Origin: an uncultured Oscillospiraceae bacterium
GTDB lineage: Bacteria; Bacillota; Clostridia; Peptostreptococcales; Anaerovoracaceae
Assembly (NCBI GenBank): GCA_964619315.1
Contig: CAZUEH010000004.1
Span: forward strand, 24,285-88,284
DNA length: 64,000 bases
Direction: 5' to 3'
Part shown: one piece after another, positions 15,184 to 46,500 of the stretch
Position numbering within the stretch: the first letter of the stretch is position 1
How the letters are laid out: every line of letters starts with the position of its first letter
The notes under the pieces: generated by a model
Told to the model about the DNA's origin: nothing
What the model saw: the letters and a program-made list of their open reading frames with translations, nothing else
Database searches by the model: none
Translations under genes and position numbers: made by a program

Positions 15184-16521
15184 TTACTTGATTTTTTCGA
15201 TAATACTTGCGGCTTTTGCCTTCAAAACCTCTTTTTCGTTAGGAACATCTTCATTTATCACTGCTTCTAAGAGATTTTCTAATATTTCTCCTATTTCTTT
15301 GCCCGGATTCATCCCCATGGCAAGCAAATCATCTCCATCCAGTTCCATGTCCTTTAGGGAGAAGCATTCTTTCCTCTCTATTATGGATTTTGCCATTTCT
15401 TCCAGCTGGTTATATTTTTCTTGTCTGCACCAATATTGTTGGCCTTGTCCCAAGTTATCTGCTCTTTTTAACTTCAATAGGTCTAAAAACGTTTCTGGCG
15501 AAAGTTTGTTTAAGGCCCTCTTTACCGATTTTTCGGTGGTGGCTATTTCCACTCCATGGTTTTTCACAAGTTCAACCACCGATGCTTTTGTAGCGTTGTC
15601 GAATTTAAGTCTTTCCATAATATCTTGCGTTATTTGTGCGCTGACCAGTTCATGTTTGTAAAAATGTCCTATTCCTTCCTCGTCTTGAGAGAAGCATCTT
15701 GGCTTTCCTATGTCATGAAGGAGTGCCGCAAGCCGCAACTCTAATTTGGGTTCAATAGCGTCTACGACTCCAAGTGTGTGTTCGTAGACATCGTATACGT
15801 GATGAGGATTTTTTTGGTTAAATCCTATGGCTTCTACGATTTCAGGAATTATGGTGCCTATTATCTCCGCTCCATTTGTTAAAACTTTTTTTGTATTCTT
15901 TGCACACAATAACTTGCAAAGCTCATCTCGGACTCTTTCCGCACTTATGTTTTTTAGAAGTTCTCTGTTGTTGTTTGCTTCTAATAATGTATCGCTTTCA
16001 ATTTCAAAACCTGTTACTGCAGCGAATCTCAATGCTCGCATTATTCTAAGTGCGTCTTCTTTGAATCTCGCGTCTGGTCGTCCAACACAGCGAATGATTC
16101 TTGCTTTAATGTCCTCTTGCCCGCCAAAGTAATCTACTATCCCATCCTCATAGTTAAAGGCTATGGCGTTCATTGTAAAATCTCGTCTTGCCATATCTTC
16201 CTTTATATTAGAGGTGAACTCAACCTTGTCTGGGTGGCGGTTGTCAGAATACCCATCCTCAATTCTATATGTAGTTATCTCTATCGGATTTCCTTCTATT
16301 ATAAGGGTGCTCGTTCCATGTGTGATTCCTGTTTCTACAATTTTATGGTCTTCAAAAACTTCTTTCATTTGCCATGGCAATGCAGAGGTTGTTATATCAT
16401 AGTCCATAGGGGTTTTGCCCATAAGACTATCTCTGACACAGCCTCCCACAATATATGCCTCAAAGCCGGCCTTGTGTAGGTCAGTCAAAACCTTATTTAT
16501 ATTTTTAGGTATCTTAATCAT
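15184..16521 (-). CDS. cca: CCA-adding tRNA nucleotidyltransferase (poly(A) polymerase family head plus HD domain)
   Basis: The 445 aa ORF has the motifs GGCVRDSLMG and DYDITT, and an HD motif LLHDIGKP. Confidence 0.85.
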   Translation of the reverse strand: MIKIPKNINKVLTDLHKAGFEAYIVGGCVRDSLMGKTPMDYDITTSALPWQMKEVFEDHKIVETGITHGTSTLIIEGNPIEITTYRIEDGYSDNRHPDKVEFTSNIKEDMARRDFTMNAIAFNYEDGIVDYFGGQEDIKARIIRCVGRPDARFKEDALRIMRALRFAAVTGFEIESDTLLEANNNRELLKNISAERVRDELCKLLCAKNTKKVLTNGAEIIGTIIPEIVEAIGFNQKNPHHVYDVYEHTLGVVDAIEPKLELRLAALLHDIGKPRCFSQDEEGIGHFYKHELVSAQITQDIMERLKFDNATKASVVELVKNHGVEIATTEKSVKRALNKLSPETFLDLLKLKRADNLGQGQQYWCRQEKYNQLEEMAKSIIERKECFSLKDMELDGDDLLAMGMNPGKEIGEILENLLEAVINEDVPNEKEVLKAKAASIIEKIK

Positions 16522-16644
16522 GGATCACCTCCGGCTAACAATGTTACTTTAGTTTACCTCATATTTTAAATAAAATCAAAATTTCCTTGCGCTCTGCCGC
16601 TTTTGCTCATATAATTATTTCATTCGTTGTAAAGGAGAGACCTG

Positions 16645-17520
16645 ATGAAATCATACGCTAAAGTTATTCTTCCAATGCTTATATGGGGAACCCTCCCTAT
16701 TTTTGTAAGCAAAATTCCATTAAGTAGTGCCGAGATCGTAATGTGGAGAATTATATTCGGCTTTGCTTTTCTTGCTCTCATATTTTTGTTTACTAAAAAC
16801 AAAGCTGAGAAGGAAGTATATAAGAAGCTTTCTCCTCGATTGATTTTTACAGGGATGCTTATGGGCGCAAACTGGGTCGTTTTGTTTGAAGCTTATCGCT
16901 GTGTCGATGTAAGCGTGGCAACTTTAGTTTACTATATGGCTCCAGTCTTTGTAATGGCTGCTTCTGTTTTTCTTTTTAAGGAAAAGGCGGGGCTTATAAA
17001 GATTTTGGGGATGTCCGCCGCCCTCATAGGAATGTTCATTGTAACTGGAGTAAACATGGGTGGAGCCGATCCCGCAAGAGGTATGATGCTAAGCTTGGCT
17101 TCGGCGATTCTTTATGCTTCTGTAACACTAATGAATAAAATCACTAAAGGCCTTTCGGGTCTTGAAATGACAATTATACAACTGATAGGTGCTGCCCTCG
17201 TTGTAATTCCTTATACTGTCGTAACTCATCAGGGGCCTTGGCTCAACATCGCATCTGAAGCGGGCATTTTTACTATTATTATAGGTCTTGTTCACACAGG
17301 AATAGCTTTGTACCTATACTTCTCGGCTATTCAGGAATTACCTGCTCAAAGCGTCGCTCTTTGTAGCTATATAGATCCTGCCTCAGCTTTGTTCTTTGCT
17401 GCAATTTTCTTGGGAGATGTCTTGTCACCTTTTCAGATTTTCGGAGCGCTGCTCATCTTAGGTGGTGCTGCTATTGGAGAAATTTTAGGAAACAATCGAG
17501 AGAAAGTTCTCAAAGAATAA
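16645..17520 (+). CDS. EamA/DMT-family transporter
   Basis: The 291 aa ORF has about 10 hydrophobic segments in a duplicated EamA-like arrangement. It has a TTGCGC-17-TATAAT promoter and an AGGAGA SD upstream. Confidence 0.75.
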   Translation: MKSYAKVILPMLIWGTLPIFVSKIPLSSAEIVMWRIIFGFAFLALIFLFTKNKAEKEVYKKLSPRLIFTGMLMGANWVVLFEAYRCVDVSVATLVYYMAPVFVMAASVFLFKEKAGLIKILGMSAALIGMFIVTGVNMGGADPARGMMLSLASAILYASVTLMNKITKGLSGLEMTIIQLIGAALVVIPYTVVTHQGPWLNIASEAGIFTIIIGLVHTGIALYLYFSAIQELPAQSVALCSYIDPASALFFAAIFLGDVLSPFQIFGALLILGGAAIGEILGNNREKVLKE

Positions 17521-17537
17521 TTTGAGTTTAGAATTCT

Positions 17538-17564
17538 GCCCCGATAAACGTCGGGGCTTTTTTA
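17538..17564 (+). terminator. intrinsic terminator after the EamA gene
   Basis: GCCCCGA-TAAACG-TCGGGGC followed by TTTTTT. Confidence 0.7.
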
Positions 17565-17656
17565 GTTGCGGGCATCTCGTACTTGGTTGAAATTACTCAT
17601 TTTAAGTGGAAAGACTGGCAAATTAATTAAATTTTCAGAAAATTCAGTAAAAACGC

Positions 17657-17685
17657 TTGACATTGGTTTTTCACTATTATATTAT
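17657..17685 (+). promoter_or_regulatory. sigma-70 promoter of the ABC-importer operon
   Basis: TTGACA (17657-17662), a 17 nt spacer, then TATTAT (17680-17685). It lies about 290 nt upstream of the first structural gene. Confidence 0.55.
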
Positions 17686-17716
17686 TTAGCTACAATATTT
17701 GAAAGGGAGAACTAAA

Positions 17717-17827
17717 ATGACGCTTAGAGTATCACTTGCGGCAACTGAATATTTTGCATACTTTAGAAGCATGGTACATTTTTACCTTGCTTACTTTACA
17801 ATCGCAAAATTAAACACTGCTGCATAA
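17717..17827 (+). CDS. candidate 36-aa leader peptide rich in Tyr-Phe pairs
   Basis: Not in the ORF track because it is under 60 aa. An AGGGAG SD lies 8 nt upstream of the ATG. Translation: MTLRVSLAATEYFAYFRSMVHFYLAYFTIAKLNTAA. The peptide has 4 Tyr and 4 Phe within 16 residues, as YF, YF, FY, YF. Confidence 0.35.
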   Translation: MTLRVSLAATEYFAYFRSMVHFYLAYFTIAKLNTAA

Positions 17828-17877
17828 AAGCAAATTTTAGCACTCAACGTTTTCCTAATCCATAAATGTGAAACTAG

Positions 17878-17913
17878 CTCATTTGCAAACTATGCAAGTG
17901 AGTTCTTTGTTTT
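17878..17913 (+). terminator. intrinsic terminator inside the 5' leader (candidate attenuator)
   Basis: CTCATTTGCA-AACTA-TGCAAGTGAG forms a 10 bp stem with one G-U pair. It is followed by TTCTTTGTTTT. It sits 50 nt after the leader-ORF stop and 65 nt before the SBP start. Confidence 0.55.
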
Positions 17914-17978
17914 AGGGGACATAATCACACAAACACTTTTAAAAAATCAAACACGCGACTAAAAAGGAGACGACAAAA

Positions 17979-18959
17979 ATGAAAAAGATTATTGCAACAT
18001 TAATGGTCCTTATAATGACCTTAAGCCTATGCGCATGCGGCGGCAGCAAGGACGACAAAGAGATATTAAAAATCGGAGTCATCCAACTTATTAAGCACGA
18101 TGCTTTGGACAGAACTTATGAAGGTTTCGTAGATGGCCTTGCTGAACTGGGTTACGTTGACGGCGAAAATATCGAAATAGAATACCAAGTAGCCGCTGGA
18201 GACCAGTCAAACTGTCTTTCAATAGCTGAATCAATGGTTAACGACGACAAAGATTTAATCTTTGCTATCGCTACCACAGCAGCTCAAGCAGCAGCAAGCA
18301 AAACTTCAGACATTCCTATTTTAATATCAGCAGTAACTGATCCGGCAGGTTCCGGCCTTGTAGCTTCTAACGAAGAACCAGGTCGTAATGTTTCCGGCAC
18401 ATCTGACTTGACTCCAGTAGGAAGCCAAATGGAAATGTTAACTCAGATTTTCCCTGATGCAAAAAAGGTTGCTGTCCTTTATTGCACAACTGAATCTAAT
18501 TCAGAAATCCAGTTAGGACTTGCAAAGGAAGCAGCTGCAAAGCTTAACCTTGAAGTAGTTGAAGCATCTGTTTCTTCTTCAAATGAAATTCAGCAGATAG
18601 TAGCATCTCTTTCAAGAAAAGTTGATGTAATCTATGCTCCTACAGATAATACAATTTCAGCAGGTATGGACACCGTATCTATGGTAGCTACTCAAGAAGG
18701 CATTCCTGTTATTTGTGGAGAAGCCGGAATGGTAAAGGCTGGCGGAACAGCAACTCTTGGTCTTGACTACTATGACTTAGGAATTGCCACTGCAAAGCAA
18801 GCAATTAGAATCTTGGTTGATGGTGAAGACATCACTAAAATGCCAATCGAATATGCACAGGACGAAACATTAAAATATGCAGTAAATACTGCAATTGTAG
18901 ATCAATTGTCTATAGCTATTCCAAAGGAAATAATGGATAACTGCACTGTATATAAATAA
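17979..18959 (+). CDS. ABC transporter substrate-binding lipoprotein (ABC_sub_bind / COG2984 family)
   Basis: The 326 aa ORF has a signal peptide with lipobox LSLCACGG. The sequence KIGVIQLIKHDALD...AIATTAAQAAA is typical of this family. AAGGAG SD. Confidence 0.8.
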   Translation: MKKIIATLMVLIMTLSLCACGGSKDDKEILKIGVIQLIKHDALDRTYEGFVDGLAELGYVDGENIEIEYQVAAGDQSNCLSIAESMVNDDKDLIFAIATTAAQAAASKTSDIPILISAVTDPAGSGLVASNEEPGRNVSGTSDLTPVGSQMEMLTQIFPDAKKVAVLYCTTESNSEIQLGLAKEAAAKLNLEVVEASVSSSNEIQQIVASLSRKVDVIYAPTDNTISAGMDTVSMVATQEGIPVICGEAGMVKAGGTATLGLDYYDLGIATAKQAIRILVDGEDITKMPIEYAQDETLKYAVNTAIVDQLSIAIPKEIMDNCTVYK

Positions 18960-19020
18960 ACTTTAAGGCGGGGGAATATCCCCCGCCAATTGATATAACA
19001 AGTAAAACAAGGAGCTAAGT

Positions 19021-19989
19021 ATGGAACTTTTGTCAAGTATATTGAGAAATCTCCCTGATGCCCTTTCTCTCGGACTTGTCTGGGGAATTATGGCTATCGG
19101 GGTGTATATAACTTTTAAAGTATTGGACATCGCTGATATGACAGTTGATGGTACCTTTGCTTTAGGAGGCTGCATCGTGGCCTCCACTATATCAGCTGGT
19201 TGGAATCCTTGGATGTCCAGCTTGCTAGCAGTTGTTTGCGGCATGGGTGCAGGATTTATGACAGGTACGTTACACACCAAATTCAAGATACCTGCAATCC
19301 TTGCAGGTATCTTGACCATGCTATCCCTCTACTCGATTAACCTTATAATATTAGGCGGCAAGTCAAACATCGGTATGTCTCAGTTTGGCGAGCAGCGAGT
19401 AGATACAATCGTAGATACTATTACTGCGCTTTTCGGGGCGACTTCAAAAACTACTACTATAATTATGGGCCTCATTTTGGCCGTACTAATTATTGGCGGA
19501 TTGTACTGGTTCTTTGGAACCGAAAAGGGTTGCCTCATAAGAGCTACTGGTATTAACGAGGCCATGGTTAAAGCCCAAGGAGGCAACACTGACAACATGA
19601 AAATCATGGGAATAATCATCGCCAATGGATTCGTTGCCCTTTCTGGCGCTCTTGTCGCTCAAATCCAGAGATATGGAGACGTGGGCATGGGTACTGGAAC
19701 CATCGTTATCGGATTAGCTTCCATAATAATTGGTGAGGTAATTTTCGGCACTAAGTGTTCCTTCAAAATGAGAATGGTTTCCGTTTTCTTTGGTAGCATT
19801 GCATATCGTGTAATCATAGCAACTGTTTTGCTTTTGGGTTTCAATCCAAACAATTTGAAGTTGCTAACAGCACTTTTAGTTATCGCTGCCCTATCTGTTC
19901 CTACACTGAGAGAGTATTTGACAGAAAGAAAGCGTGTCAAGGAAAATATCAGCACTTATGAGGGGGTGGATACTAATGTTGACGCTTAA
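19021..19989 (+). CDS. ABC transporter permease (branched-chain/BPD_transp_2-like)
   Basis: The 322 aa ORF is multi-TM. It follows the SBP and overlaps the ATPase gene. Confidence 0.8.
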   Translation: MELLSSILRNLPDALSLGLVWGIMAIGVYITFKVLDIADMTVDGTFALGGCIVASTISAGWNPWMSSLLAVVCGMGAGFMTGTLHTKFKIPAILAGILTMLSLYSINLIILGGKSNIGMSQFGEQRVDTIVDTITALFGATSKTTTIIMGLILAVLIIGGLYWFFGTEKGCLIRATGINEAMVKAQGGNTDNMKIMGIIIANGFVALSGALVAQIQRYGDVGMGTGTIVIGLASIIIGEVIFGTKCSFKMRMVSVFFGSIAYRVIIATVLLLGFNPNNLKLLTALLVIAALSVPTLREYLTERKRVKENISTYEGVDTNVDA

Positions 19990-20770
19990 AGACGTATGTA
20001 AAACATTTAATAGAGGCTCAGCCAACGAAAAGGTTGCCTTGCAGTGTATTGACCTCAATGTTAATGAGGGTGATTTTATAACTGTAATCGGTGGCAATGG
20101 GGCTGGCAAATCCACTATGCTCAACATGATTTCGGGTGCATTTCCCGTTGACAGTGGTCTAATTAAGATGGGTAGCGAAAACGTTACCAATCAACCAGAA
20201 CACGTTCGCGCAAATAGAATTGGTCGAGTTTTTCAAGACCCAATGATGGGTACCGCGGGAGATATGTGGATAGAAGAAAATCTTGCGATAGCATACAGAA
20301 GAGGCAAAAAAAGAGGCTTCAAGTGGGGTGTAACAAAAGATGAGAGAGTCCTTTATAAAGAACTTCTTGCGCCTTTTGATTTAGGCCTTGAGGACCGCTT
20401 ACAAACAAAAGTATCCCTCTTATCAGGAGGACAGCGCCAAGCGTTGACTCTACTTATGGCTACAATTCAGCGTCCTGACATTTTACTTTTAGATGAACAT
20501 ACGGCGGCGCTTGATCCTAAAACTGCTTCCAAAGTTCTTTCAATGGCAGATACGTTGATTAAAGAACATAACCTTACAGCAATAATGGTAACACATAATA
20601 TGAAAGACGCAATCAAATATGGTAACCGTATCATAATGATGATGAACGGCAAAATAATATACGATGTGTCCGGAGAAGAGAAAGCAAAGCTACAAGTTGC
20701 TGACCTTCTTAAAAAGTTTGAAGTCTCCGCAGGAGAAGAATTTACTAGCGACAGAATGCTTCTTGTTTAA
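19976..20770 (+). CDS. ABC transporter ATP-binding protein
   Basis: Walker A GGNGAGKST, signature LSGGQRQ and Walker B LLLDEH are present. I trimmed the start to the ATG at 19976 (MLTLKDVCKTF), which follows a GAGGGGG SD. The ORF track gives 19934. Confidence 0.85.
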   Translation: MLTLKDVCKTFNRGSANEKVALQCIDLNVNEGDFITVIGGNGAGKSTMLNMISGAFPVDSGLIKMGSENVTNQPEHVRANRIGRVFQDPMMGTAGDMWIEENLAIAYRRGKKRGFKWGVTKDERVLYKELLAPFDLGLEDRLQTKVSLLSGGQRQALTLLMATIQRPDILLLDEHTAALDPKTASKVLSMADTLIKEHNLTAIMVTHNMKDAIKYGNRIIMMMNGKIIYDVSGEEKAKLQVADLLKKFEVSAGEEFTSDRMLLV

Positions 20771-20778
20771 CAAAAAAA

Positions 20779-20803
20779 GGCTCCGTTTTATAAAACGGAG
20801 CCT
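20779..20803. terminator. bidirectional intrinsic terminator between the ABC operon and the EAL gene
   Basis: GGCTCCGTTTT-ATA-AAACGGAGCC is flanked by an A-run upstream and a T-run downstream. Confidence 0.7.
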
Positions 20804-20816
20804 TTTGGGTTTTAAA

Positions 20817-21524
20817 TTATAATCCGAGGTTTTCTTTTAAGAACTTGTTGGCCTCATCTTGTGGTAAAACTCGAGAGTAATAGAACCCTTGAATCAAGTC
20901 ACAGTCAGTTGATAGAACCATTTCATTTTGCTCTTCAGTTTCGACACCTTCACAAAGAACTTCAATGCCAAGTCCATGGGCCAATACGATAATGCCGTCT
21001 AACAACTTCTTGCCTCGTTCGTCCAATGCGTTTAAAATGATTTTACGTTCGACTTTAACGCAATCTATTGGATAATCGTATAAGTCAATCAATGAAGAGT
21101 CTCCTCCACCAATATCATCTAAAACGATTGGGAATCCAAGGTCTTTACATCCGTTGATTTTTTTAAGTGATGTTTTTCTATCGTCAGATAAAGCGTTTTC
21201 TGTTATCTCGATTACCATATTGTTGTGGTTGAAAGAATACTTCTCAGTAATTCTTGTGATATCTTCTAAGAACTTCTTGTCAGAAATCGTAAATCTTGTA
21301 AAGTTACAAGACAAGGTTACATCTGAGATTCCTTCTTTTTCCCACTTTTCTAGCTGCTCACAAACTTGACCAAACATGAAATAGTCATGGTCGTGTATCA
21401 TTCCAGTACGGCTCAAAACATCAAGGTATTTGGCTGGAGTAAGCAATCCTTCTTGTGGATCCTGCCAACGGGATACCGCCTCAGCTCCATGGATTTTACC
21501 TTCTTTATTAACTACATACTGCAA
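20817..21524 (-). CDS. EAL-domain protein (c-di-GMP phosphodiesterase domain only); probably a 5'-truncated remnant of a larger signalling gene
   Basis: Catalytic-type motifs are present: GAEAVSRW, EITEN, LDDIGGG, EGVETEEQ, QGF. The only start is a TTG inside the canonical domain N-terminus. The reading frame stays open without a start up to 21644 and is followed by an IS fragment. Confidence 0.65.
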   Translation of the reverse strand: MQYVVNKEGKIHGAEAVSRWQDPQEGLLTPAKYLDVLSRTGMIHDHDYFMFGQVCEQLEKWEKEGISDVTLSCNFTRFTISDKKFLEDITRITEKYSFNHNNMVIEITENALSDDRKTSLKKINGCKDLGFPIVLDDIGGGDSSLIDLYDYPIDCVKVERKIILNALDERGKKLLDGIIVLAHGLGIEVLCEGVETEEQNEMVLSTDCDLIQGFYYSRVLPQDEANKFLKENLGL

Positions 21525-21689: not shown

Positions 21690-21975
21690 TAGAAAAATAG
21701 ATGAAGTCCTAGATACATTTAAAATAAAGCGTTCACTGAGCATGAAAGGCTGTCCTTATGATAATGCTGTAGCTGAAGCTACATTCAAGATATTTAAAAC
21801 TGAATTCGCAAATATCTCTTATTTTGAAAGCTTGGAACAGTTAGAAATCATGTTAGCTGACTATGTAAATTGGTTTAATAATATTATGATTCATTCAACA
21901 TTAGGATATTTGAGTCCCAAAGAATATAAATTACATAACCTTAAAAAAACTGTCTAGATTAGTGTTGACAATCCA
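21690..21975 (+). pseudogene. IS3-family transposase C-terminal fragment (integrase core end) with a probable right terminal sequence
   Basis: Translation: ...LDTFKIKRSLSMKGCPYDNAVAEATFKIFKTEF...HSTLGYLSPKEYK. This matches the conserved SMSRKGNCxDNA...LxYxSPxxY end of IS3 OrfB. There is no N-terminal part, no frameshift region and no left end. The downstream sequence ends ...GTTGACAATCCA. Confidence 0.65.
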
Positions 21976-36642: not shown

Positions 36643-38013
36643 TTATTTTCCTAAACAAAATCTTTCAAACACCTTGTCAATTATATCAGAGGTTGCCGTC
36701 TCTCCAATTATTTCTCCCAGAGCCTCGTATGCCCTGTTTACATCAATCTCGATAAATTCCAAAGGTTCTCTTATTTCAGTCATTTGCAAAGCATCCGCCA
36801 GACTCTGGCTTCCTTCTTCCAAAAGATTTTTGTGGCGAAGGTTCGTCACCAGCATATTTTCTCCATGACTTACTTGACCTCCATACACCATGTCCTCTAT
36901 GGCTGCTGCCAACTCTTTTGACCCTTTGCCATCAATCAACGCAGTCTCTATTATAACTGCCTGAGGCATTGCTTTGGTTAGTTTCGCTGCTGTAATCACA
37001 GAGCCTTTATCTCTTTTGTTAAGCAGAATTATAGCTTTGCGATCTGCAATATAATCAATTATTTCGTGATCCTCTGGATCAAGGTCGTTGCTTCCATCAA
37101 TTACGAAGACAACTAAATCCGAATTATTAAAAGCCTCTTTGCTCTTCTCAATTCCTATTTTTTCTATTACGTCCTCAGTCTCATGGATGCCGGCTGTATC
37201 TGTTAACACAACAGGAATGTTGTTTATTACAAGCCTTTCCTCTATTGTATCTCTTGTGGTTCCCGGGATATCTGTTACTATGGCTCTGTTCTCGCCGATA
37301 AGAGTGTTCATCAAGGAGGACTTTCCTACATTAGGTTTTCCTACTATTGATACTTTTAATCCCTCTCTGATTATTCGCCCTGTGTTAGCAGTGGACAATA
37401 GCTTGACTATTTTGTCCCTTGTATTTTTCAACGCCTCCGACAATTTTTCGTAGGTCATTTCTTCAATGTCCTCGTCTGGATAATCAATGTTTACCGTAAG
37501 GCTCACCAATATATCCACAAGGTCTGCACGTATTTCCTTTATTTTTGCAGAAAAAGCTCCTTCAAGCTGGTCGAGGGCTACATCGAAAGTTTTTTCAGTC
37601 TTGGCTTTGATCAAATCGATTACAGCTTCTGCCTGTGACAAATCAAGGCGTCCATTCAAAAATGCTCTTTTGGTGAATTCTCCTTTTTCAGCAAGTCTTC
37701 CGCCATTTTTCAATACTAAGTCCAAAATTTTTCTTAAAGAAATAATGCTGCCATGACATTGTATTTCTACTACATCTTCAGCCGTATATGTACGAGGGCC
37801 TTTCATATATACAGACATTACCTCGTCTATTTTCTTGCCACTTTCAGGATCTATTATGTGACCATAAGCAAGCGTTCTGCTTTTTATGTTTTCGGACACA
37901 GGAACAAAGACCTTCTTCAAAATTGTCAAGGCCTCTTCTCCGCTTATTCTTACTATTCCTATTCCGCCCTCGCCTTGGGCCGTTGCAATAGCAACAATTG
38001 TATCTTCCATCAT
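36643..38013 (-). CDS. mnmE: tRNA modification GTPase MnmE (TrmE)
   Basis: The 456 aa ORF has the G1 motif GKPNVGKSS, the G3 motif DTAG, and the C-terminal motif FCLGK. Confidence 0.95.
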
Positions 38014-38075
38014 ACGCTTTTCCCTAATTAGTTAATTTGTTGCAAAAAGGGCTGTCAAAGAGACAGCCCTCCATA

Positions 38076-38873
38076 TTATTTCAGCTCAATTATAACCCTT
38101 CTATATGGGTCTTGTCCTTCGCTTCTAGTTAACACCTTGTCGTGGTTGTGAAGAGCTTCGTGAATCACCTTTCTTTCATACGGGTTCATCGGTTCAAGCT
38201 TAACACTTCTTCTTGTTTTCATTACCTTGTTGGCAAGTCTATACGCCAGCGCTTCAAGGGTGCTTTCTCTCTTTGCTCTATAATTTTCGGCATCTACTAC
38301 CACTCGAGTATATTCTTCATTGCCTTTGTTAGCTACAAGGCTTGTCAAATATTGGATAGCATCCAAGGTTTGTCCTCTTTTGCCTATTATAGTTCCAGAA
38401 TCTTTGCCTTGAATGTTCAAGAACAAAGCTTCGTCATTTTTCTTGGCTTCTATTTCTAGATCCAATCCCATTTCCTTCATTACTTTTCTAAGGAAATCTA
38501 GTGCTTCGTGTTCTTCGCAAGGAACTAAGTTCTCTTCGTTGAGTTCTCGTTCTTTTTTGAAGTTTTCTTCCTGTCCAACTCTTGGTTCCTGCTTTGCAGG
38601 TTCCTTTGCGAACTTTTCTGTCTGTTGAGTCTGCACTTTTGGTGCCTTTTCGGTTTCAATGACTTCCTTTTTATATTCAGTTGTCGGCTTTGCTGACTCC
38701 TGCTTTTTTTCTACCCTAACGAGGGCAAGTTTTGAGCCAATTCCGAAAAAGCCTCTTGAAGGTTCCTCTAAAACAGTAACTTCGACTTCATCTATGGTAA
38801 GTTTCAGATCTTCTAACGCCAAGCTTACGGCGGTTTCTACATCTGTTCCCCATTTTTCAGAAAAATCTGCCAT
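38076..38873 (-). CDS. jag: Jag/KhpB RNA-binding protein (Jag_N, KH, R3H)
   Basis: The KH region reads GKRGQTLDAIQYL. The R3H region reads LEPMNPYERKVIHEAL. I set the start at the ATG at 38871-38873, downstream of a GGAGG. The ORF track uses a TTG at 38891. Confidence 0.8.
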   Translation of the reverse strand: MADFSEKWGTDVETAVSLALEDLKLTIDEVEVTVLEEPSRGFFGIGSKLALVRVEKKQESAKPTTEYKKEVIETEKAPKVQTQQTEKFAKEPAKQEPRVGQEENFKKERELNEENLVPCEEHEALDFLRKVMKEMGLDLEIEAKKNDEALFLNIQGKDSGTIIGKRGQTLDAIQYLTSLVANKGNEEYTRVVVDAENYRAKRESTLEALAYRLANKVMKTRRSVKLEPMNPYERKVIHEALHNHDKVLTRSEGQDPYRRVIIELK

Positions 38874-38898
38874 GTTTTGCTTTTCCTCCAATATAAAG

Positions 38899-39612
38899 TT
38901 ATGCTCTCGCTACTTTTTTCTTCTTCTTTTTCTTAGTTTCTCCTAACATCTTCTTCTTCATTTTAGCGAAGTGGATGTTGTAGAAGATTTGAATTATCTG
39001 ATTCAAAGACCAATAAATAGCTAATCCTGCTGGATAGCTTCTTGCCATAACCAAAATCATTACAGGGAAAAAGTATTTCATAACTTTGTTCATAACCTGC
39101 ATTTGTTCTGCATTTGGTCCAGCGGTCTGATTGGTCTGAGAAAAATAGGTTGCTATAAAGGTAGCAATTCCCGCCACTACCGGAAGTATCCACTTATCAG
39201 GTTGTGATAAGTCAGGGATCCACAAGAATTCTTCGTGGATAGCAAAAAGCATGGAATCAGAAGAAATATAGTTCATTGGGTTTCTCAACAAAGAAAAAAG
39301 TCCCATTATAACTACCATCTGAACCAACATTGGAAGGCATCCGCCATACATGCTACCGCCTTCTTCTTTATATAGCTCTGACATCTTTTCATTCATCAGA
39401 GTTTTATCTTTAGCATATTTTTGCTGTATTTCCTTGATTTTGGGTTGCATTTTGCTCATGTTGGTTGTAGTCTTTATCTGCTTTGCATATAAAGGGTACA
39501 TTACAACCTTTACTAAGACCGTAAATGCAATTAAAGCAAGACCATAATTACCTATTAAGTCATAAATCCATGTGAGCAAATAACTCATTGGACCTGCTAA
39601 AATTCTCATCAA
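38899..39612 (-). CDS. yidC: membrane protein insertase YidC/SpoIIIJ
   Basis: The 237 aa ORF has multiple TM segments, a YidC core (GCLPMLVQMVV) and a Lys-rich tail. Confidence 0.9.
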   Translation of the reverse strand: MMRILAGPMSYLLTWIYDLIGNYGLALIAFTVLVKVVMYPLYAKQIKTTTNMSKMQPKIKEIQQKYAKDKTLMNEKMSELYKEEGGSMYGGCLPMLVQMVVIMGLFSLLRNPMNYISSDSMLFAIHEEFLWIPDLSQPDKWILPVVAGIATFIATYFSQTNQTAGPNAEQMQVMNKVMKYFFPVMILVMARSYPAGLAIYWSLNQIIQIFYNIHFAKMKKKMLGETKKKKKKKVARA

Positions 39613-39621
39613 TTTCCTCCA

Positions 39622-39852
39622 TTATTTTAAAGGGTCGTATCCTCCTTCATGCCAAGGATGACACTTTAAAATTCGTTTAATTCCCAAGTAACCGCCTTTT
39701 ATTGGCCCGTATTTTTCCAGTGCCTGTATAAAATATGTCGAACAGGTTGGAGTAAAACGACATGTCGAGGGGAAAAGCGGCGAAATAATCTTCTGATAAA
39801 ACTTAATTAACAGAATCATAATTTTTTTAAAAAAATTACTTATAAATTTCAT
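39622..39852 (-). CDS. yidD: membrane protein insertion efficiency factor YidD
   Basis: The 76 aa ORF reads [31 protein letters not shown]...KRILKCHPW. Confidence 0.85.
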
Positions 39853-40190
39853 TTTACTTTTTTAACCCCGGCTCTCCTAAAGGCAGAATTAAGGGATTTT
39901 TCAACTTCTGCACATTTTTTGTCACAAATAGTGTTTCTTGCAATGATAATAAAATCATAGCCAATAGGCAGCCTCTTTTCGATGCTACGATAGCTTTCTT
40001 TCATAAGGCGCTTTGCTCTGTTTCTTTTAACACTATTTCCGACTTTTTTGCTTGCCAAAACCCCTGTCCTGTTATAAGAAAGTCCATTTGGACGATAAAA
40101 TAAAACTACATATCGGTCTCCAATTGACTTGCCTCTTTTATATATGGCCGAAAAATCGCCATTTTTTCTCAAAACATTCTTTTTTAGCAT
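39849..40190 (-). CDS. rnpA: ribonuclease P protein component
   Basis: The 113 aa ORF is basic and has an RNR-like motif ([11 protein letters not shown]). It follows rpmH. Confidence 0.9.
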
Positions 40191-40217
40191 TGTTTACAAA
40201 TCCTTCGGATTCATTGA

Positions 40218-40352
40218 TTAAGCACTAAGTTGCTTTCTTCCTTTAGCTCTTCTTCTCTTCAAAACGTTTCTACCGTTTTTTGTGCTCATTCTTTTTCTGA
40301 AGCCATGTTCCTTCATTCTCTGTCTCTTTTTTGGTTGATAAGTTTGTTTCAT
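40218..40352 (-). CDS. rpmH: 50S ribosomal protein L34
   Basis: 44 aa: [45 protein letters not shown] trimmed the start to the ATG at 40350-40352, which follows an AAAGGAGAA SD. Confidence 0.9.
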
Positions 40353-40400
40353 TTCTAAGGTTCTCCTTTCCAAACGTGTTTGTGTAAATCTAAATTCCAA

Positions 40401-40628
40401 TTACACACATATGCCTTGATATTATAAATTAAAAACCGTTGAATGTCAATGATTTCATGGATTATCTTTTCCTCAAAAACTTATTAAAAATTGTTCCCAC
40501 TTTTATCCACATCCTGTGGATAACTTATTTAATTATTTATTTTTCAAATATCACAAGTTCACACTTGCCTGTGGATAACTTTTTAGTTAGAATGTAACTA
40601 TACAACAAAAAAATTAAGAAGGTTTGTT
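40401..40628. other. oriC, upstream DnaA-box cluster (rpmH-dnaA intergenic region)
   Basis: Perfect DnaA boxes are TTATCCACA at 40503-40511 and TGTGGATAA at 40515-40523 and 40570-40578. The context is AT-rich. Gene orientation flips at this position. Confidence 0.8.
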
Positions 40629-41990
40629 ATGGATTATAATAAGATTTGGGAAAGCGTACTTAGCAAAATGGAGCAGCTAACAACTCCAATAAGCTATACA
40701 ACATGGATTCTACCCCTAAAAATCAGAAGGATCGACAAAGAATTAAAAATAGTTTATCTTGAGGTCAATTCAGACAGCAAAAGTGAATTCATCATCAAGA
40801 CTATTAAAAATAGATATATTACCGGCCTCGAAACTACTTTTAAGGAAGTTTTAGAGGATAGTTTTCGTGTAGTTTTAAAGGATTCTGAGCAATATAGAGT
40901 CGAAGAAGAAAAAACCGAACCAAAACTCAAACCTAAAACTAATACTTTGAACCACGAAAAAATATTCAATCCAAGATTTAATTTCGCAAATTTTGTAGTT
41001 GGTAACAGCAATAAGTATGCTCATGCTGCCTCCTTGGCAGTCGCCGAGTCTCCATCAGAAGCTTACAACCCTCTGTTTATATATGGTGCTTCTGGACTTG
41101 GTAAGACACATTTGATGCATGCTATTGGAATTTACCTTTTAGAAAATAATCCTTCACAAAATGTTTTATATGTTTCCTCTGAAATGTTTACAAATGAGCT
41201 TATAAAAGCTTTGCGTAATCACACTATGAACGAATTTAAGTCGAAATATAGAAAAGTAGACGTTCTTCTTATTGATGATATACAATTTTTAGAGGGAAAA
41301 GAAAATACACAGGAAGAATTTTTCCACACTTTTAACTCCCTATATGATTTAAATAAGCAGATAATCATTTCGAGTGACAGGGCTCCAAATAAATTGGTAA
41401 ATTTGGAGGAAAGACTTAGATCAAGATTCCAATGGAACTTAATTGCTGACATTCAGCCGGCAGATTATGAAACAAGAGTTGCAATCCTGATTAAAAAAGC
41501 AGAAAATATGGGTCTAAACTTAGAAGAAAACCCTGAACTTTATGATGTTGTCTGCATGATCGCAGAGAAAATAAAAGATAATATTAGAGAACTTGAAGGA
41601 GCATTGATACGAGTAGTATCTTTCTCTCAACTACTAAATGAAAAATTGGATAAGAATTTTACTCGAAAAACTTTAAAAGATATTTTTAGTAATTTAGAAA
41701 GAACTGTAACTCCTGAGAAAATCAAGAAAACCGTCTGCAAACACTACGGAATAAAGGTTTCTGATATGGAATCTTCTAAAAAAACTAATAATATAGCTTT
41801 TCCAAGGCAAATAGCAATGTATCTTATTCGTGAGATGACAGATTACTCTCTTCCTAAGATTGGACAATTCTTTGGAGGAAAACATTATACGACTGTTTTA
41901 TATGCTTGCGACAAGATAAATGATGATTTGCAAATAGATAAAAACTTGTCCGAAATAATAAATCAAATCAAAGAAGAGTTGAAAGAATAA
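40629..41990 (+). CDS. dnaA: chromosomal replication initiator protein DnaA
   Basis: The 453 aa ORF has Walker A GASGLGKTHL and a C-terminal DNA-binding region IAFPRQIAMYLIREMT...GGKHYTTVLYA. Confidence 0.97.
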   Translation: MDYNKIWESVLSKMEQLTTPISYTTWILPLKIRRIDKELKIVYLEVNSDSKSEFIIKTIKNRYITGLETTFKEVLEDSFRVVLKDSEQYRVEEEKTEPKLKPKTNTLNHEKIFNPRFNFANFVVGNSNKYAHAASLAVAESPSEAYNPLFIYGASGLGKTHLMHAIGIYLLENNPSQNVLYVSSEMFTNELIKALRNHTMNEFKSKYRKVDVLLIDDIQFLEGKENTQEEFFHTFNSLYDLNKQIIISSDRAPNKLVNLEERLRSRFQWNLIADIQPADYETRVAILIKKAENMGLNLEENPELYDVVCMIAEKIKDNIRELEGALIRVVSFSQLLNEKLDKNFTRKTLKDIFSNLERTVTPEKIKKTVCKHYGIKVSDMESSKKTNNIAFPRQIAMYLIREMTDYSLPKIGQFFGGKHYTTVLYACDKINDDLQIDKNLSEIINQIKEELKE

Positions 41991-42156
41991 TAGTTATCCT
42001 AACCATTAAAAAGCATTTAACTTTTACTCCATATAATTTGAACAACCGTTTCTGTTGACGTTTTAATGGGTTTAGAAGTTATCCACAGATTTCACAGGCC
42101 CTACTACTACTATTACTACCAATAAATATAATTATTAACTAATACGGAGGTATTGT
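41991..42156. other. oriC, downstream part: DnaA boxes, GC clamp, DnaA-trio array and AT-rich unwinding element
   Basis: TTATCCACA lies at 42079-42087 and a degenerate TTATCCTAA at 41994-42002. A GGCC clamp follows. Then CTA CTA CTA CTA TTA CTA at 42101-42118 gives 3'-GAT/AAT-5' trios on the bottom strand. AATAAATATAATTATTAA follows. Confidence 0.7.
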
Positions 42157-43269
42157 ATGAAATTTTCTTGTAACCAACATACTCTTACAAAAGCACTTAA
42201 TATTGTTTCAAAAGCAGTCACTATAAGAACCACTATTCCTATCTTAAAAGGCATTCTTCTAAAAGTAGATGCTAACGGGATACTTACTATGGCAGCTTCC
42301 GATTTAGACTTAAGTATAGAGAAGAAGATAAAAGTAGAAAATAGTACCCCAGGCGAAATAGTGGTACTTTCCAAGTTATTTGGAGATATAATAAGAAAAC
42401 TTCCTGATGGAGTAATAACAATTGAAGAAAACGACGGTAAAATAAATATCAAATGTTCAAATTCCGAGTTTAACATAATAGGACTTTCCGCAGAAGAATT
42501 TCCTAATATAAACCCTAATGAAGAAGACACAGAAAAATTAGTTTTCAACAAAGAATTATTAAAAGACATGATAAAGAAAACCTCTTTTGCTGCAAGCATA
42601 GACGAAAATAAAGGTGCTATGACTGGAGTTCTTATTGAAATGGACGAAGATAGCTTAAACATGGTAGCTATAGACGGCTTTAGAATGGCAATAGCAAGAG
42701 AACAAATGAAAAACAAGAAAAAACAAAACATTATAATACCTGCCAAAATACTCACAGAAATAAGCAGAATAATAACAGAAGAAGAAATAAACAGTGATGA
42801 TGTAACAATGGTTCTAAATGAGAAAAAAGCGATATTTGTTATGGAAAACACTAAAATTGTTATAAGACTTTTAGAAGGCGAATTCATGAATTATAACAGA
42901 ATAATACCTACAGAAAACCCTTGCAAGGTTGTATTAAACAAAAATGATTTAATGAACAGCGTAGAAAGAGCATCACTTCTTGCAAAAGTAGGAAAAAACA
43001 ATCTTATAAAACTTGAAATAAAAGATAACGGCATAGAAATAACTTCCAAGTCAGAAGAAGGAAATGTTAAAGAGGAAGTAATCGCTTCAAAAGATGGAAA
43101 TGATATTATAATAGGATTCAACTCAAAATATTTAATAGATGTACTAAAAGTAATAGATGATGAAAACATAACCATGCTTTTCAACACAAATGTAAGCCCT
43201 TGCTTGATAAAACCACTTTCTGGAAATGAATTTGAGTACTTAATATTACCAGTAAGAATAAATCAATAA
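42157..43269 (+). CDS. dnaN: DNA polymerase III beta sliding clamp
   Basis: The 370 aa ORF begins MKFSCNQHTLTKALNIVSKAV and follows dnaA. Confidence 0.95.
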   Translation: MKFSCNQHTLTKALNIVSKAVTIRTTIPILKGILLKVDANGILTMAASDLDLSIEKKIKVENSTPGEIVVLSKLFGDIIRKLPDGVITIEENDGKINIKCSNSEFNIIGLSAEEFPNINPNEEDTEKLVFNKELLKDMIKKTSFAASIDENKGAMTGVLIEMDEDSLNMVAIDGFRMAIAREQMKNKKKQNIIIPAKILTEISRIITEEEINSDDVTMVLNEKKAIFVMENTKIVIRLLEGEFMNYNRIIPTENPCKVVLNKNDLMNSVERASLLAKVGKNNLIKLEIKDNGIEITSKSEEGNVKEEVIASKDGNDIIIGFNSKYLIDVLKVIDDENITMLFNTNVSPCLIKPLSGNEFEYLILPVRINQ

Positions 43270-44354
43270 TGTATATAAAAAAAATAGAATTAAAAAACTT
43301 CAGAAATTATGAAAACCTTGAATTAGAGTTTAATGAAAAGGCGAATTTTATAATTGGCAATAATGCTCAAGGCAAAACTAACCTTCTTGAGGGGATTTTT
43401 ATGTCTTCGGTTGGAAAATCTTTTAGAACTTCAAAAGATAGTGAAATGATTGGCTTTGATAAAGATTTTAGCAAAATTAAAGTTACAGCGCACAAAGATT
43501 TATTTCCGATAGAAGTAGATATAACTTTAAAAAAGGATGCTGGAAAATTCATAAAGGTAGATGGAGTTAATATATCAAAAACATCAGATCTTTTAGAAAA
43601 TGTATATATAGTTATATTTTCACCTGAAGATTTAAAAATAGTAAAAGATGAACCGGAAAAAAGAAGAAGATTTATAGATCGAGAACTTTGTATAATAAAA
43701 CCATCATATTACGACAGTTTTTTTAATTATAAAAAAGTTTTACTCCAAAGAAATACTTATATAAAAGAAAAAAGCATAGATAAATCCGTTCTCGACATAT
43801 GGGATATGCAGCTTGCAAAGTATGGAGCAAAAATTATATCGATGAGATATGATTTTATACAAAAAATAGATAAACTGAGCAATGAAATTCATAAAAGCAT
43901 AACCAATGGAAAAGAAAATCTGCGTATAGAATATGATCCTAACATTAAAATGGCAGATGAATTGGAAAAAACAGTTTACGAAGCTATTAAAAATTCTTAT
44001 TCAAATGACCTTAGGCTGAGAACCACAACAAAAGGGCCACATAGAGATGATATACAATTTTATATAGATAATGTAAATGTTAGAAGCTTTGGATCTCAAG
44101 GTCAGCAAAGAACTACAGCACTCTCTCTTAAACTTGCAGAGTTAAATATAATAAAAGAAGAGACTGGAGAAAGTGCAATTTTGCTTTTAGATGATGTTAT
44201 GTCAGAACTTGATTCAACACGACAGGAATTTTTGATAAAAACCTTATCTGACATACAACTTTTTATAACAACAACAGAGATTACACAGAATCTAAAAGAC
44301 GCAGTTTCCAAAGGAAATATATATACAATTGAAAAAGGAAAAGTAAAGCTATAA
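43269..44354 (+). CDS. recF: DNA replication and repair protein RecF
   Basis: The 361 aa ORF has Walker A GNNAQGKTNLLE, the signature GSQGQQRT and Walker B LLLDDV. Confidence 0.9.
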   Translation: MYIKKIELKNFRNYENLELEFNEKANFIIGNNAQGKTNLLEGIFMSSVGKSFRTSKDSEMIGFDKDFSKIKVTAHKDLFPIEVDITLKKDAGKFIKVDGVNISKTSDLLENVYIVIFSPEDLKIVKDEPEKRRRFIDRELCIIKPSYYDSFFNYKKVLLQRNTYIKEKSIDKSVLDIWDMQLAKYGAKIISMRYDFIQKIDKLSNEIHKSITNGKENLRIEYDPNIKMADELEKTVYEAIKNSYSNDLRLRTTTKGPHRDDIQFYIDNVNVRSFGSQGQQRTTALSLKLAELNIIKEETGESAILLLDDVMSELDSTRQEFLIKTLSDIQLFITTTEITQNLKDAVSKGNIYTIEKGKVKL

Positions 44355-44405
44355 AAAACATACCAGAATCAAGAGATATATACGCTGTTTTTTATAGCTT
44401 TTTTA
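44346..44405 (+). terminator. possible terminator after recF (long stem, large loop)
   Basis: AAGCTATAAAAAACA-N25-TGTTTTTTATAGCTT followed by TTTT. The stem is AT-rich, so this call is weak. Confidence 0.35.
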
Positions 44406-44529
44406 GTTGGAAAAATCGGTTTTAAGAGGGGTAAAAATAAAAAAACAAGAAACAATATTAAATGAAGAATTTATTTGAATAAAACCCCAAAATATGGTAT
44501 ACTAATCGCTGGGATTGTAACTTGCTTAA

Positions 44530-46500
<1,971 letters not shown>

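Follow-up and report, generated by a model that had tools for sequence, protein, structure and literature searches.

Leader peptides that sense amino acids are textbook regulators in Proteobacteria and are rare in Firmicutes, where T-boxes mostly serve this purpose and transcription can run ahead of the ribosomes. Known leader-peptide attenuators of Firmicutes are few, comprising the histidine leaders of Bacilli (PMC2965389), the branched-chain leaders of Staphylococcus aureus and Lactococcus lactis (for S. aureus, PMC5794164) and a phenylalanine (Phe) upstream open reading frame (ORF) in Acholeplasma (PMC8632094). In the S. aureus ilv-leu operon, CodY is combined with a Leu/Ile-rich attenuator peptide whose terminator lies 52 nucleotides (nt) after the leader stop codon (Kaiser et al. 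2018, PMC5794164). Here we analyze a 64,000-nt stretch of contig CAZUEH010000004.1, from an uncultured gut member of the Clostridia (the whole stretch is called the window below), in which a leader ORF rich in tyrosine (Tyr) and Phe codons precedes the genes of an ATP-binding cassette (ABC) importer. We estimate at roughly two chances in three that this importer carries Tyr and/or Phe and is under two-layer amino-acid control, by CodY at its promoter and by a ribosome-mediated Tyr/Phe attenuator in its leader.

The original prediction had described a promoter, a Shine-Dalgarno (SD) sequence, a 36-codon ORF with four Tyr and four Phe codons, and a hairpin followed by a T tract, and had read this layout as a classical attenuator. 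Reading the sequence again located every one of these parts where they had been placed, and the attenuator reading gains support from the recurrence of the layout in 16 other diverged lineages. Two elements were absent from that account, namely a perfect, conserved CodY box and a covarying hairpin that overlaps the ORF. From the promoter region to the SD of the first importer gene, the elements are as follows.

17630 to 17644, no strand: CodY box AATTTTCAGAAAATT, a perfect 15-base-pair (bp) palindrome with 0 mismatches to the consensus AATTTTCWGAAAATT
17657 to 17685, plus strand: sigma-70-type promoter TTGACA-17-TATTAT (-35 at 17657-17662, -10 at 17680-17685), promoter score 11/12
17703 to 17709, plus strand: SD AAGGGAG of the leader ORF, 7 nt 5' of the ATG
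17717 to 17827, plus strand: leader ORF MTLRVSLAATEYFAYFRSMVHFYLAYFTIAKLNTAA, 36 codons plus TAA (17825-17827), taken from the ORF listing, its frame conserved
17750 to 17797, plus strand: regulatory codon block, codons 12-27, with 4 Tyr, 4 Phe and 0 tryptophan (Trp) codons, from codon counts against shuffles
17752 to 17809, plus strand: conserved hairpin within the ORF, stems P2 and P3, from RNAalifold and pair counting
17830 to 17841, plus strand: candidate antiterminator upstream strand GCAAATTTTAGC, complementary to 17877-17886 in the terminator 5' arm
17876 to 17913, plus strand: intrinsic terminator, stem-loop 17876-17904 (12 pairs, -14.8 kcal/mol) followed by CTTTGTTTT
17964 to 17969, plus strand: SD AAGGAG of the binding-protein gene, read from the sequence

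To follow these elements across relatives, loci were collected by a genome scan with the binding protein (L001-L006), a metagenome scan queried with aligned close homologues (L007-L086) and twelve exact-protein look-ups (L087-L098). The leader is present in every locus whose binding protein is ~67-79% identical to that of the window and which has enough upstream DNA; these loci represent 17 distinct lineages, the window included, and thus at least 17 related gut Clostridia. The leader was not found in loci with a 45-60% identical binding protein, and no other Tyr/Phe-rich, leader-like small ORF was found at loci of more distant substrate-binding proteins. The scan for leader-like small ORFs also returned three other matches in the window and minus-strand matches in L024, L090 and L095. 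It should be noted that the lineages are related to each other and are not independent samples, and that the analyses of codons, frames, terminators and pairing presented below cover 15 of the 17.

The small ORF and its richness in Tyr and Phe, which the original prediction expected to be conserved, are retained in all 17 lineages, with variation in flanking codons and at synonymous positions. Codons 12-27 of the window ORF include 8 Tyr/Phe codons out of 16, where shuffling yields 3.5 ± 1.3 (P = 0.0005) and the alternative frames have 2-3. Each of the 15 lineages tested has 7-9 such codons in this block (P from <0.0005 to 0.0075), where composition-matched shuffles predict 2.4-4.4 and the other frames contain 0-4; Trp codons are lacking from the block in the lineages tested. 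Individual aromatic positions turn over while the total is maintained. Position 26, for instance, may be Y, D, A, V or G, and lineages that have lost aromatics elsewhere have acquired them at positions 17, 21 and 24. Frame 0 is free of internal stops in 15/15 lineages, compared with 0-6 stops in each of frames +1 and +2 (mean ~2.7), and an AAGGAG-like SD and an invariant ATG occur in all aligned lineages. The ORF is 36 codons long in most lineages (35 in L008 and L097, 32 in L091, 38 in L095, 40 in L089), and independent gene callers predict it in several assemblies. Taken together, these patterns suggest that the ORF is translated.

The conservation of the ORF does not seem to lie in its peptide sequence. 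At codons 2-8, 50-67% of pairwise comparisons differ at all three positions, and variation at second codon positions is no lower than at third positions. In one clade, Gly14 (GGC) and Pro30 (CCA) are replaced by Asn14 (AAC) and Leu30 (UUA), which keeps the RNA pair and not the residue type. These three observations show that selection does not act on the amino-acid sequence as such. Public databases label the leader peptides only as 'hypothetical protein' or 'unknown', no Pfam match was obtained for the ORF, and a phmmer search of the 36-residue peptide against 1.8 billion representatives returned only the peptide itself. At the end of the ORF, the string GCUGCAUAG is retained in L091 even though it is out of frame there, the ORF stopping 12 nt earlier, and in L089 it is changed to GCUGUACAG, the ORF being longer by 4 codons. 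What is conserved in this stretch is thus apparently the RNA and not Ala-Ala-stop.

The hairpin within the ORF was recognized by RNAalifold from a nearly ungapped 15-sequence alignment (A3), and its covariation indicates that it is real as an RNA structure. Stem P2 joins 17752-17757 to 17804-17809 (codons 12-14 with 29-31), and stem P3 joins 17767-17771 to 17788-17792 and 17774-17776 to 17783-17785 (codons 17-20 with 23-26). Standard pairs fill 92% of the hairpin cells, a share that drops to 30-52% if the partners are displaced by 1-3 columns. A double change is seen in 31 cells, compared with 10.8 ± 2.7 in shuffles (0/500 shuffles reach 31), and 9/15 pairs show such a change. The internal loop GCUUACUUU is conserved and codon 27 is always TTT, while the apical loop is not conserved. 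The aromatic codons are located partly in the 5' strand of the hairpin and partly in its loops, and the leader as a whole (17690-17980) folds better than all 200 of its shuffles (z = -3.8). This hairpin is likely the counterpart of the 1:2 (pause) hairpin in classical attenuators, at which RNA polymerase would pause. A single-register closing stem (codons 8-9 with 35-36) was also considered and was dropped because it could not be aligned across lineages.

Downstream of the ORF, the terminator of the window begins 48 nt after the leader stop codon. A hairpin of -14.8 to -24.3 kcal/mol followed by a T tract is present in 15/15 lineages analyzed, at 38-54 nt from the stop in 13 of them and at 67 nt in L020 and 102 nt in L094. 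The arm sequences differ among lineages yet remain complementary, i.e., they covary. A search of the window for a promoter-like site in the stretch from the terminator to the SD of the binding-protein gene found none, and the T tract of L002 and L003 lies only ~30 nt from the start codon of that gene. With no promoter in between and little room for one, the importer must be transcribed through the terminator.

What would relieve this terminator is suggested by the region around the leader stop codon. The strand GCAAATTTTAGC, 3-14 nt after the stop, is the best partner of the terminator 5' arm in the whole window leader (-9.1 to -9.3 kcal/mol), and in most lineages the stop region is the best or a near-best partner, complementing the loop-proximal part of its own lineage's 5' arm. 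The sequences on both sides differ among lineages, as the following pairings illustrate.

Window: stop region GCAAAU(UUU)AGC with 5' arm GCU(C)AUUUGC
L002: stop region CUGAUG with 5' arm CAUCAG
L003: stop region GCUGAUG with 5' arm CAUCAGC
L008: stop region GCAGA...GGG with 5' arm CCC...UCUGC
L089: stop region UACAGAUUAGCC with 5' arm GGCCCGUCUGUA, -15 kcal/mol
L020 and L093: stop region CAAGUG with 5' arm CACUUG

Compensatory changes include GCUGAUG:CAUCAGC in L003 becoming GCUGACG:CGUCAGC in L096 (U:A to C:G) and UGCA:UGCA in L092 becoming UGUA:UACA in L094. Where the end of the ORF has moved (extended in L089, truncated in L091, shifted in L095), a ribosome on the relocated stop codon could still reach the complement. 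In folds restricted to the RNA downstream of the ribosome, the arm is paired to the stop region when the aminoacyl site is on the last aromatic codon and is free when it is on the stop codon in 12/15 lineages; for the window, the probability that the arm is paired falls from 0.55 with the stalled ribosome to 0.05 with the ribosome on the stop codon. The aggregate probability that the arm pairs with the stop region is 0.49, compared with 0.28 ± 0.05 when the segment covered by the terminating ribosome is shuffled (0/100 shuffle sets match), although the relatedness of the lineages means that such aggregate statistics overstate their independence. When arms were combined with the stop regions of other lineages, the cognate partner ranked first or second in 7/15 cases, with a mean of -9.4 compared with -7.0 kcal/mol. 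These data moderately support an antiterminator, backed in aggregate and weak in several lineages. The pairing of GCAAAT (17830-17835) with ATTTGC (17881-17886), which had been put forward as a 6-bp candidate, lies at the location, directly behind the stop codon, at which relatives complement their own, different terminator arms, and the compensatory changes lend it moderate support.

Two further features of this region deserve mention. When the leader is folded without constraints, its 5' part, comprising the SD and the start region, forms pairs with the sequence that follows the stop. In the spacer, a pyrimidine-rich stretch GTTTTCCT (17849-17856) complements the SDs of the leader ORF and of the binding-protein gene equally, and stretches like it occur ~20-30 nt after the stop in most lineages; such pairing may close a leader that is not being translated, or it may hide an SD.

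At the promoter, TTGACA-17-TATTAT is the top-scoring promoter-like site within 16500-21500; in relatives the -35 TTGACA is invariant and the -10 is aligned, and transcription would start near 17692. The CodY box AATTTTCAGAAAATT ends 12 nt 5' of the -35, with its center near -55, and is the sole perfect match to the CodY-box consensus (PMC5314169) in the 64-kb window. In 15/17 leader lineages the box is perfect and its spacing to the -35 is constant; 1 mismatch occurs in L095, and L093 is without a box. Among relatives the palindrome reads AATTTTC[A/T]GAAAATT, 12-13 nt 5' of the invariant TTGACA, and it forms the most conserved stretch of the intergenic alignment. CodY control of the importer promoter is probable, as a layer beneath the attenuator. 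A partial repeat lies directly 3' of the box, so that TTCAGAAAA is present twice within 17630-17653, and it could represent a second, overlapping and degenerate CodY motif. Overlapping CodY motifs have been described in Bacillus subtilis. Perfect CodY boxes also occur in L057 (1399-1413) and L058 (1080-1094), ~100 nt 5' of the genes for binding-protein homologues of 48-50% identity, where the leader ORF is absent. Since these two loci have the box and no leader ORF, CodY control may be older or wider in this transporter family than the attenuator.

The link to Tyr and Phe comes from the importer and its relatives. The genes that follow the leader are listed below.

17979 to 18959, plus strand: lipoprotein substrate-binding protein, PF04392 ABC_sub_bind (E = 9e-78)
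19021 to 19989, plus strand: permease, PF02653, by domain match
19934 to 20770 (ORF bounds), plus strand: ABC ATPase, PF00005, whose start is probably an internal ATG near 19958-19976

The best match of the binding protein in the PDB is 6HNI, the Clostridioides difficile protein CD0873 (E = 3e-74), with two other structure matches to Vibrio cholerae VC_1101 and Streptococcus pneumoniae SP1069. The ligands of these three proteins are tyrosine, phenylalanine and tryptophan, respectively (PMC6816091). In CD0873, Glu263 bonds the tyrosine hydroxyl and Tyr279 sterically excludes tryptophan (PMC6816091); Glu248 and Tyr264 of the window protein align with these residues and are invariant in the clade. 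The binding protein is therefore predicted to take Tyr and/or Phe. The original prediction had cited tryptophan import as predicted for members of this protein family; the nearest solved homologue binds tyrosine and not tryptophan, which suits the Tyr/Phe leader even better. Directly 5' of the genes for homologues of 45-46% identity, L004 (1625-1866) and L006 (1495-1742) have T-box leaders that score 113-116 bits and whose specifier loop is GAA-UUC, i.e., Phe. In five lineages the upstream neighbor of the leader is tyrS (PF00579 and PF22421), at positions 1-378 in L089, 1-304 in L091, 1-295 in L092, 1-43 in L094 and 1-366 in L095; in the window an EamA transporter occupies this place instead. 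A leader that counts Tyr and Phe codons is physiologically coherent because of the tyrosine-binding homologue, the Phe T-boxes and the tyrS neighbors, and so would be an exchange between a T-box and a leader peptide within one transporter family.

From parts documented at the level of sequence, we infer the following course of events. CodY would bind 17630-17644 beside the promoter and set initiation according to general amino-acid and guanosine triphosphate sufficiency, most likely by repression. The leader RNA would be translated from the ATG at 17717, and the hairpin of codons 12-31 would fold first and probably pause RNA polymerase until the ribosome comes. With charged tRNA-Tyr and tRNA-Phe plentiful, the ribosome would pass the eight Tyr/Phe codons, reach the stop codon and cover the next 12-14 nt; 17830-17841 would then be blocked, the terminator 17876-17904 would fold and transcription would end at ~17905-17913. 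With either tRNA poorly charged, the ribosome would stall within codons 12-27 and leave the stop region free to pair with 17877-17886, so that the terminator is prevented and polymerase enters the importer genes. When there is no translation, the 5' half of the leader would pair with the stop region, resulting again in termination.

Several observations weigh against this interpretation. The first concerns timing: the RNA polymerase of B. subtilis outruns its ribosomes (PMC13323073), so that ribosome-dependent attenuators need efficient pausing. The second is the weakness of the switch helix, which in the window is short (~9 pairs plus an internal loop, -9 compared with -14.8 kcal/mol for the terminator), closes a loop of ~35-40 nt and is not part of the minimum-energy fold of the full leader. 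Antiterminator helices are individually non-significant in about half of the lineages, single-lineage shuffle tests being clear only in L003, L096 and L093 and marginal in the window, L089 and L002, and a ribosome on the stop codon fails to free the arm in L087, L001 and L091. Likewise, folding of the leader, proposed earlier as a check on mutually exclusive structures, gave a mixed outcome. The contrast between ribosome positions was as expected in most lineages, but the antiterminator was not seen in minimum-energy folds of the full leader, nor in those masking ±15 nt around the stalled ribosome. Long-range helices of 6-9 bp are thermodynamically unfavored, which is why the downstream-only folds and comparative tests were used. 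Third, the Tyr:Phe ratio ranges among lineages from 6:3 to 1:7, and the motif Y-F-G-[YF] and Phe27 are conserved, which could reflect a functional or arrest peptide. Finally, the binding proteins of L004 and L006 keep the Glu/Tyr pair proposed for the tyrosine specificity of CD0873; since this pair is also found in homologues behind Phe T-boxes, Glu248 and Tyr264 cannot tell Tyr from Phe.

The alternatives differ mainly in what they take to be the sensor. Direct sensing by the aromatic peptide core and/or the hairpin, through free Tyr/Phe in the exit tunnel or through a non-T-box RNA fold with affinity for an aromatic amino acid or tRNA, appears unlikely; if true, such a peptide or RNA would constitute a new class of aromatic-amino-acid sensor. 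The version in which the hairpin 17752-17809 senses a small molecule, a tRNA or an RNA-binding protein and governs the terminator, with translation secondary, would account for the strong covariation, the conserved internal loop and the stability of the leader, and it would agree with the usual reliance of Firmicutes on RNA sensors for amino-acid genes. We nevertheless regard it as quite improbable, as the apical loop is unconserved and as an RNA-only sensor would leave unexplained why SD and ATG are invariant, why the frame stays open and why the Tyr/Phe enrichment is specific to that frame. There is also no match among 4227 Rfam families. At the gathering score the whole window gave no Rfam match, and at E ≤ 10 the region 17500-18050 gave only noise, in agreement with the original prediction, in which neither a T-box consensus nor a known riboswitch core had been seen in the leader. 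Phe_leader, Trp_leader, His_leader, Leu_leader, Thr_leader and the leu/phe leader were not among the 11 matches listed for this region. A T-box (RF00230) or a known riboswitch was accordingly rejected as a candidate; the same T-box model readily detects the leaders of L004 and L006.

Comparably low odds apply to the proposal that the product of the ORF is itself a functional small protein, such as a membrane-associated, aromatic-rich peptide working with the transporter, and that a leaky terminator fixes the ratio of peptide to importer mRNA. The conserved ORF length, the gene calls in several assemblies and the presence of an SD, promoter and terminator of its own would be expected of such a gene. 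But there is hardly any constraint on the first and last thirds of the peptide, second codon positions are unprotected and residue changes follow the RNA pairing; the charge that R17, K19 or E17 places amid the aromatic residues speaks against a membrane helix, the searches of Pfam and of protein representatives gave no relatives, and the covarying complementarity of stop region and terminator arm would have no explanation.

A TnaC-like, ligand-dependent arrest of the nascent peptide, in which the aromatic core in the exit tunnel senses free Tyr/Phe or another molecule and tRNA charging is irrelevant, seems very unlikely. The core A-x-x-Y-F-G-[YF]...[FY]-x-x-A-x-F is recognizable across lineages and its Y-to-F swaps are conservative at the protein level, which speaks for such a peptide. 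In TnaC-type arrest, however, the last residues and the stop codon are critical, and here the last residues vary (AA, SA, FA, CT, KD, SR, YS), all of TAA, TAG and TGA serve as stops, and the length ranges over 32-40 codons. The joint replacement of Gly14 and Pro30 keeps RNA pairing rather than residue type, and an abundant free amino acid would switch the importer ON, which is the wrong sign unless stalling favors termination. Least probable of all is that there is no amino-acid-specific switch and that a constitutive partial terminator leaves all regulation to CodY: the perfect, conserved CodY box and the weak antiterminator of several lineages are compatible with this, but it does not explain the fixed-length, Tyr/Phe-enriched ORF and the spacer of typically 44-51 nt in all lineages, and L093 keeps the leader yet lacks the CodY box.

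As to the surroundings of the importer operon, the upstream gene, encoding the EamA transporter, is separate and has its own terminator (17538-17557). Downstream, a 71-residue remnant of an insertion-sequence integrase core (rve_2, E = 2.5e-16, 21742-21957) adjoins an EAL-domain ORF (20817-21524), which begins, with TTG, at position 21 of its profile and is possibly truncated. Together, the two point to an ancient insertion close behind the importer operon. Farther along, the window contains the chromosomal origin region (36643-46500), with mnmE on the minus strand followed by dnaA (40629-41990), dnaN, recF and gyrB on the plus strand.

Returning to the two-layer model, a ribosome-mediated attenuator of this type would sense tyrosine together with phenylalanine and control uptake and not synthesis. 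It would replace the Phe T-box of more distant homologues, providing a natural example of sensor swapping, and would predict the substrate of an abundant, uncharacterized importer of gut bacteria. A related importer of C. difficile, which takes up tyrosine, is tied to p-cresol production. The leader would also offer a test case for how ribosome-dependent attenuation can be synchronized in Firmicutes.

Among described systems, the T-boxes in front of PF04392 transporters (TrpX of Streptococcus suis, PMC9382623, and L004/L006) share with the window leader the position, the transporter family and the terminator read-out, and with the proposed mechanism the logic of responding to uncharged tRNA. 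They differ in that a T-box senses by RNA-tRNA pairing without translation, and the window leader is without T-box motifs and gives no RF00230 match at E ≤ 10 either. On the protein side, C. difficile CD0873 (6HNI; PMC6816091) is the closest solved homologue and the Glu/Tyr pair is conserved, although the identity is only moderate. Outside Proteobacteria and Actinobacteria, the Acholeplasma aroF uORFC-13-1 (PMC8632094) and the His leaders of Bacilli (PMC2965389) are likewise predicted attenuators that combine an upstream ORF carrying regulatory codons with a terminator. They belong to other taxa, genes and amino acids, uORFC-13-1 having at least 1 Phe codon and no Tyr (PMC8632094), and no sequence relationship to the window leader was detected. 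Literature searches found no described leader that contains Tyr or mixes Tyr and Phe, nor any that occurs in Clostridia or controls a PF04392 importer, and a Tyr-rich leader peptide was likewise missing from the results of the Rfam scan. We most likely deal with a previously undescribed family of ribosome-mediated Tyr/Phe attenuators, the kind of attenuation itself being known.

That kind is best represented by pheL-pheA, trpL and hisL of Escherichia coli, which have in common with the window a leader ORF with its SD, a cluster of regulatory codons and a terminator before the structural genes, as well as, in the arrangement proposed here, an alternative pairing that is controlled by the ribosome and involves the terminator 5' arm. 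Unlike these proteobacterial leaders, to which it has no sequence similarity, the window leader belongs to uncultured gut Clostridia and to an importer instead of a biosynthetic operon. It has 36 codons, with 7-9 mixed Tyr/Phe codons dispersed over 16 codons inside a covarying hairpin, and its putative antiterminator uses the stop-codon region across a spacer of ~45-50 nt. The S. aureus ilv-leu leader, also from a firmicute, is similar in combining a promoter CodY box with a leader peptide and in placing the terminator ~50 nt after the stop (52 there, 48 here). It differs in its Leu/Ile codons, its 26-residue peptide and its biosynthetic genes (PMC5794164), and its proposed antiterminator sequesters the poly-U tail and not the 5' arm (PMC5794164); it also has genetic support, whereas the attenuator proposed here comes from sequence comparison. 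Compared with all of these systems, the set of features found here is unusual, bringing together a long leader, dispersed and mixed codons within a covarying hairpin, an importer as target and a CodY box.

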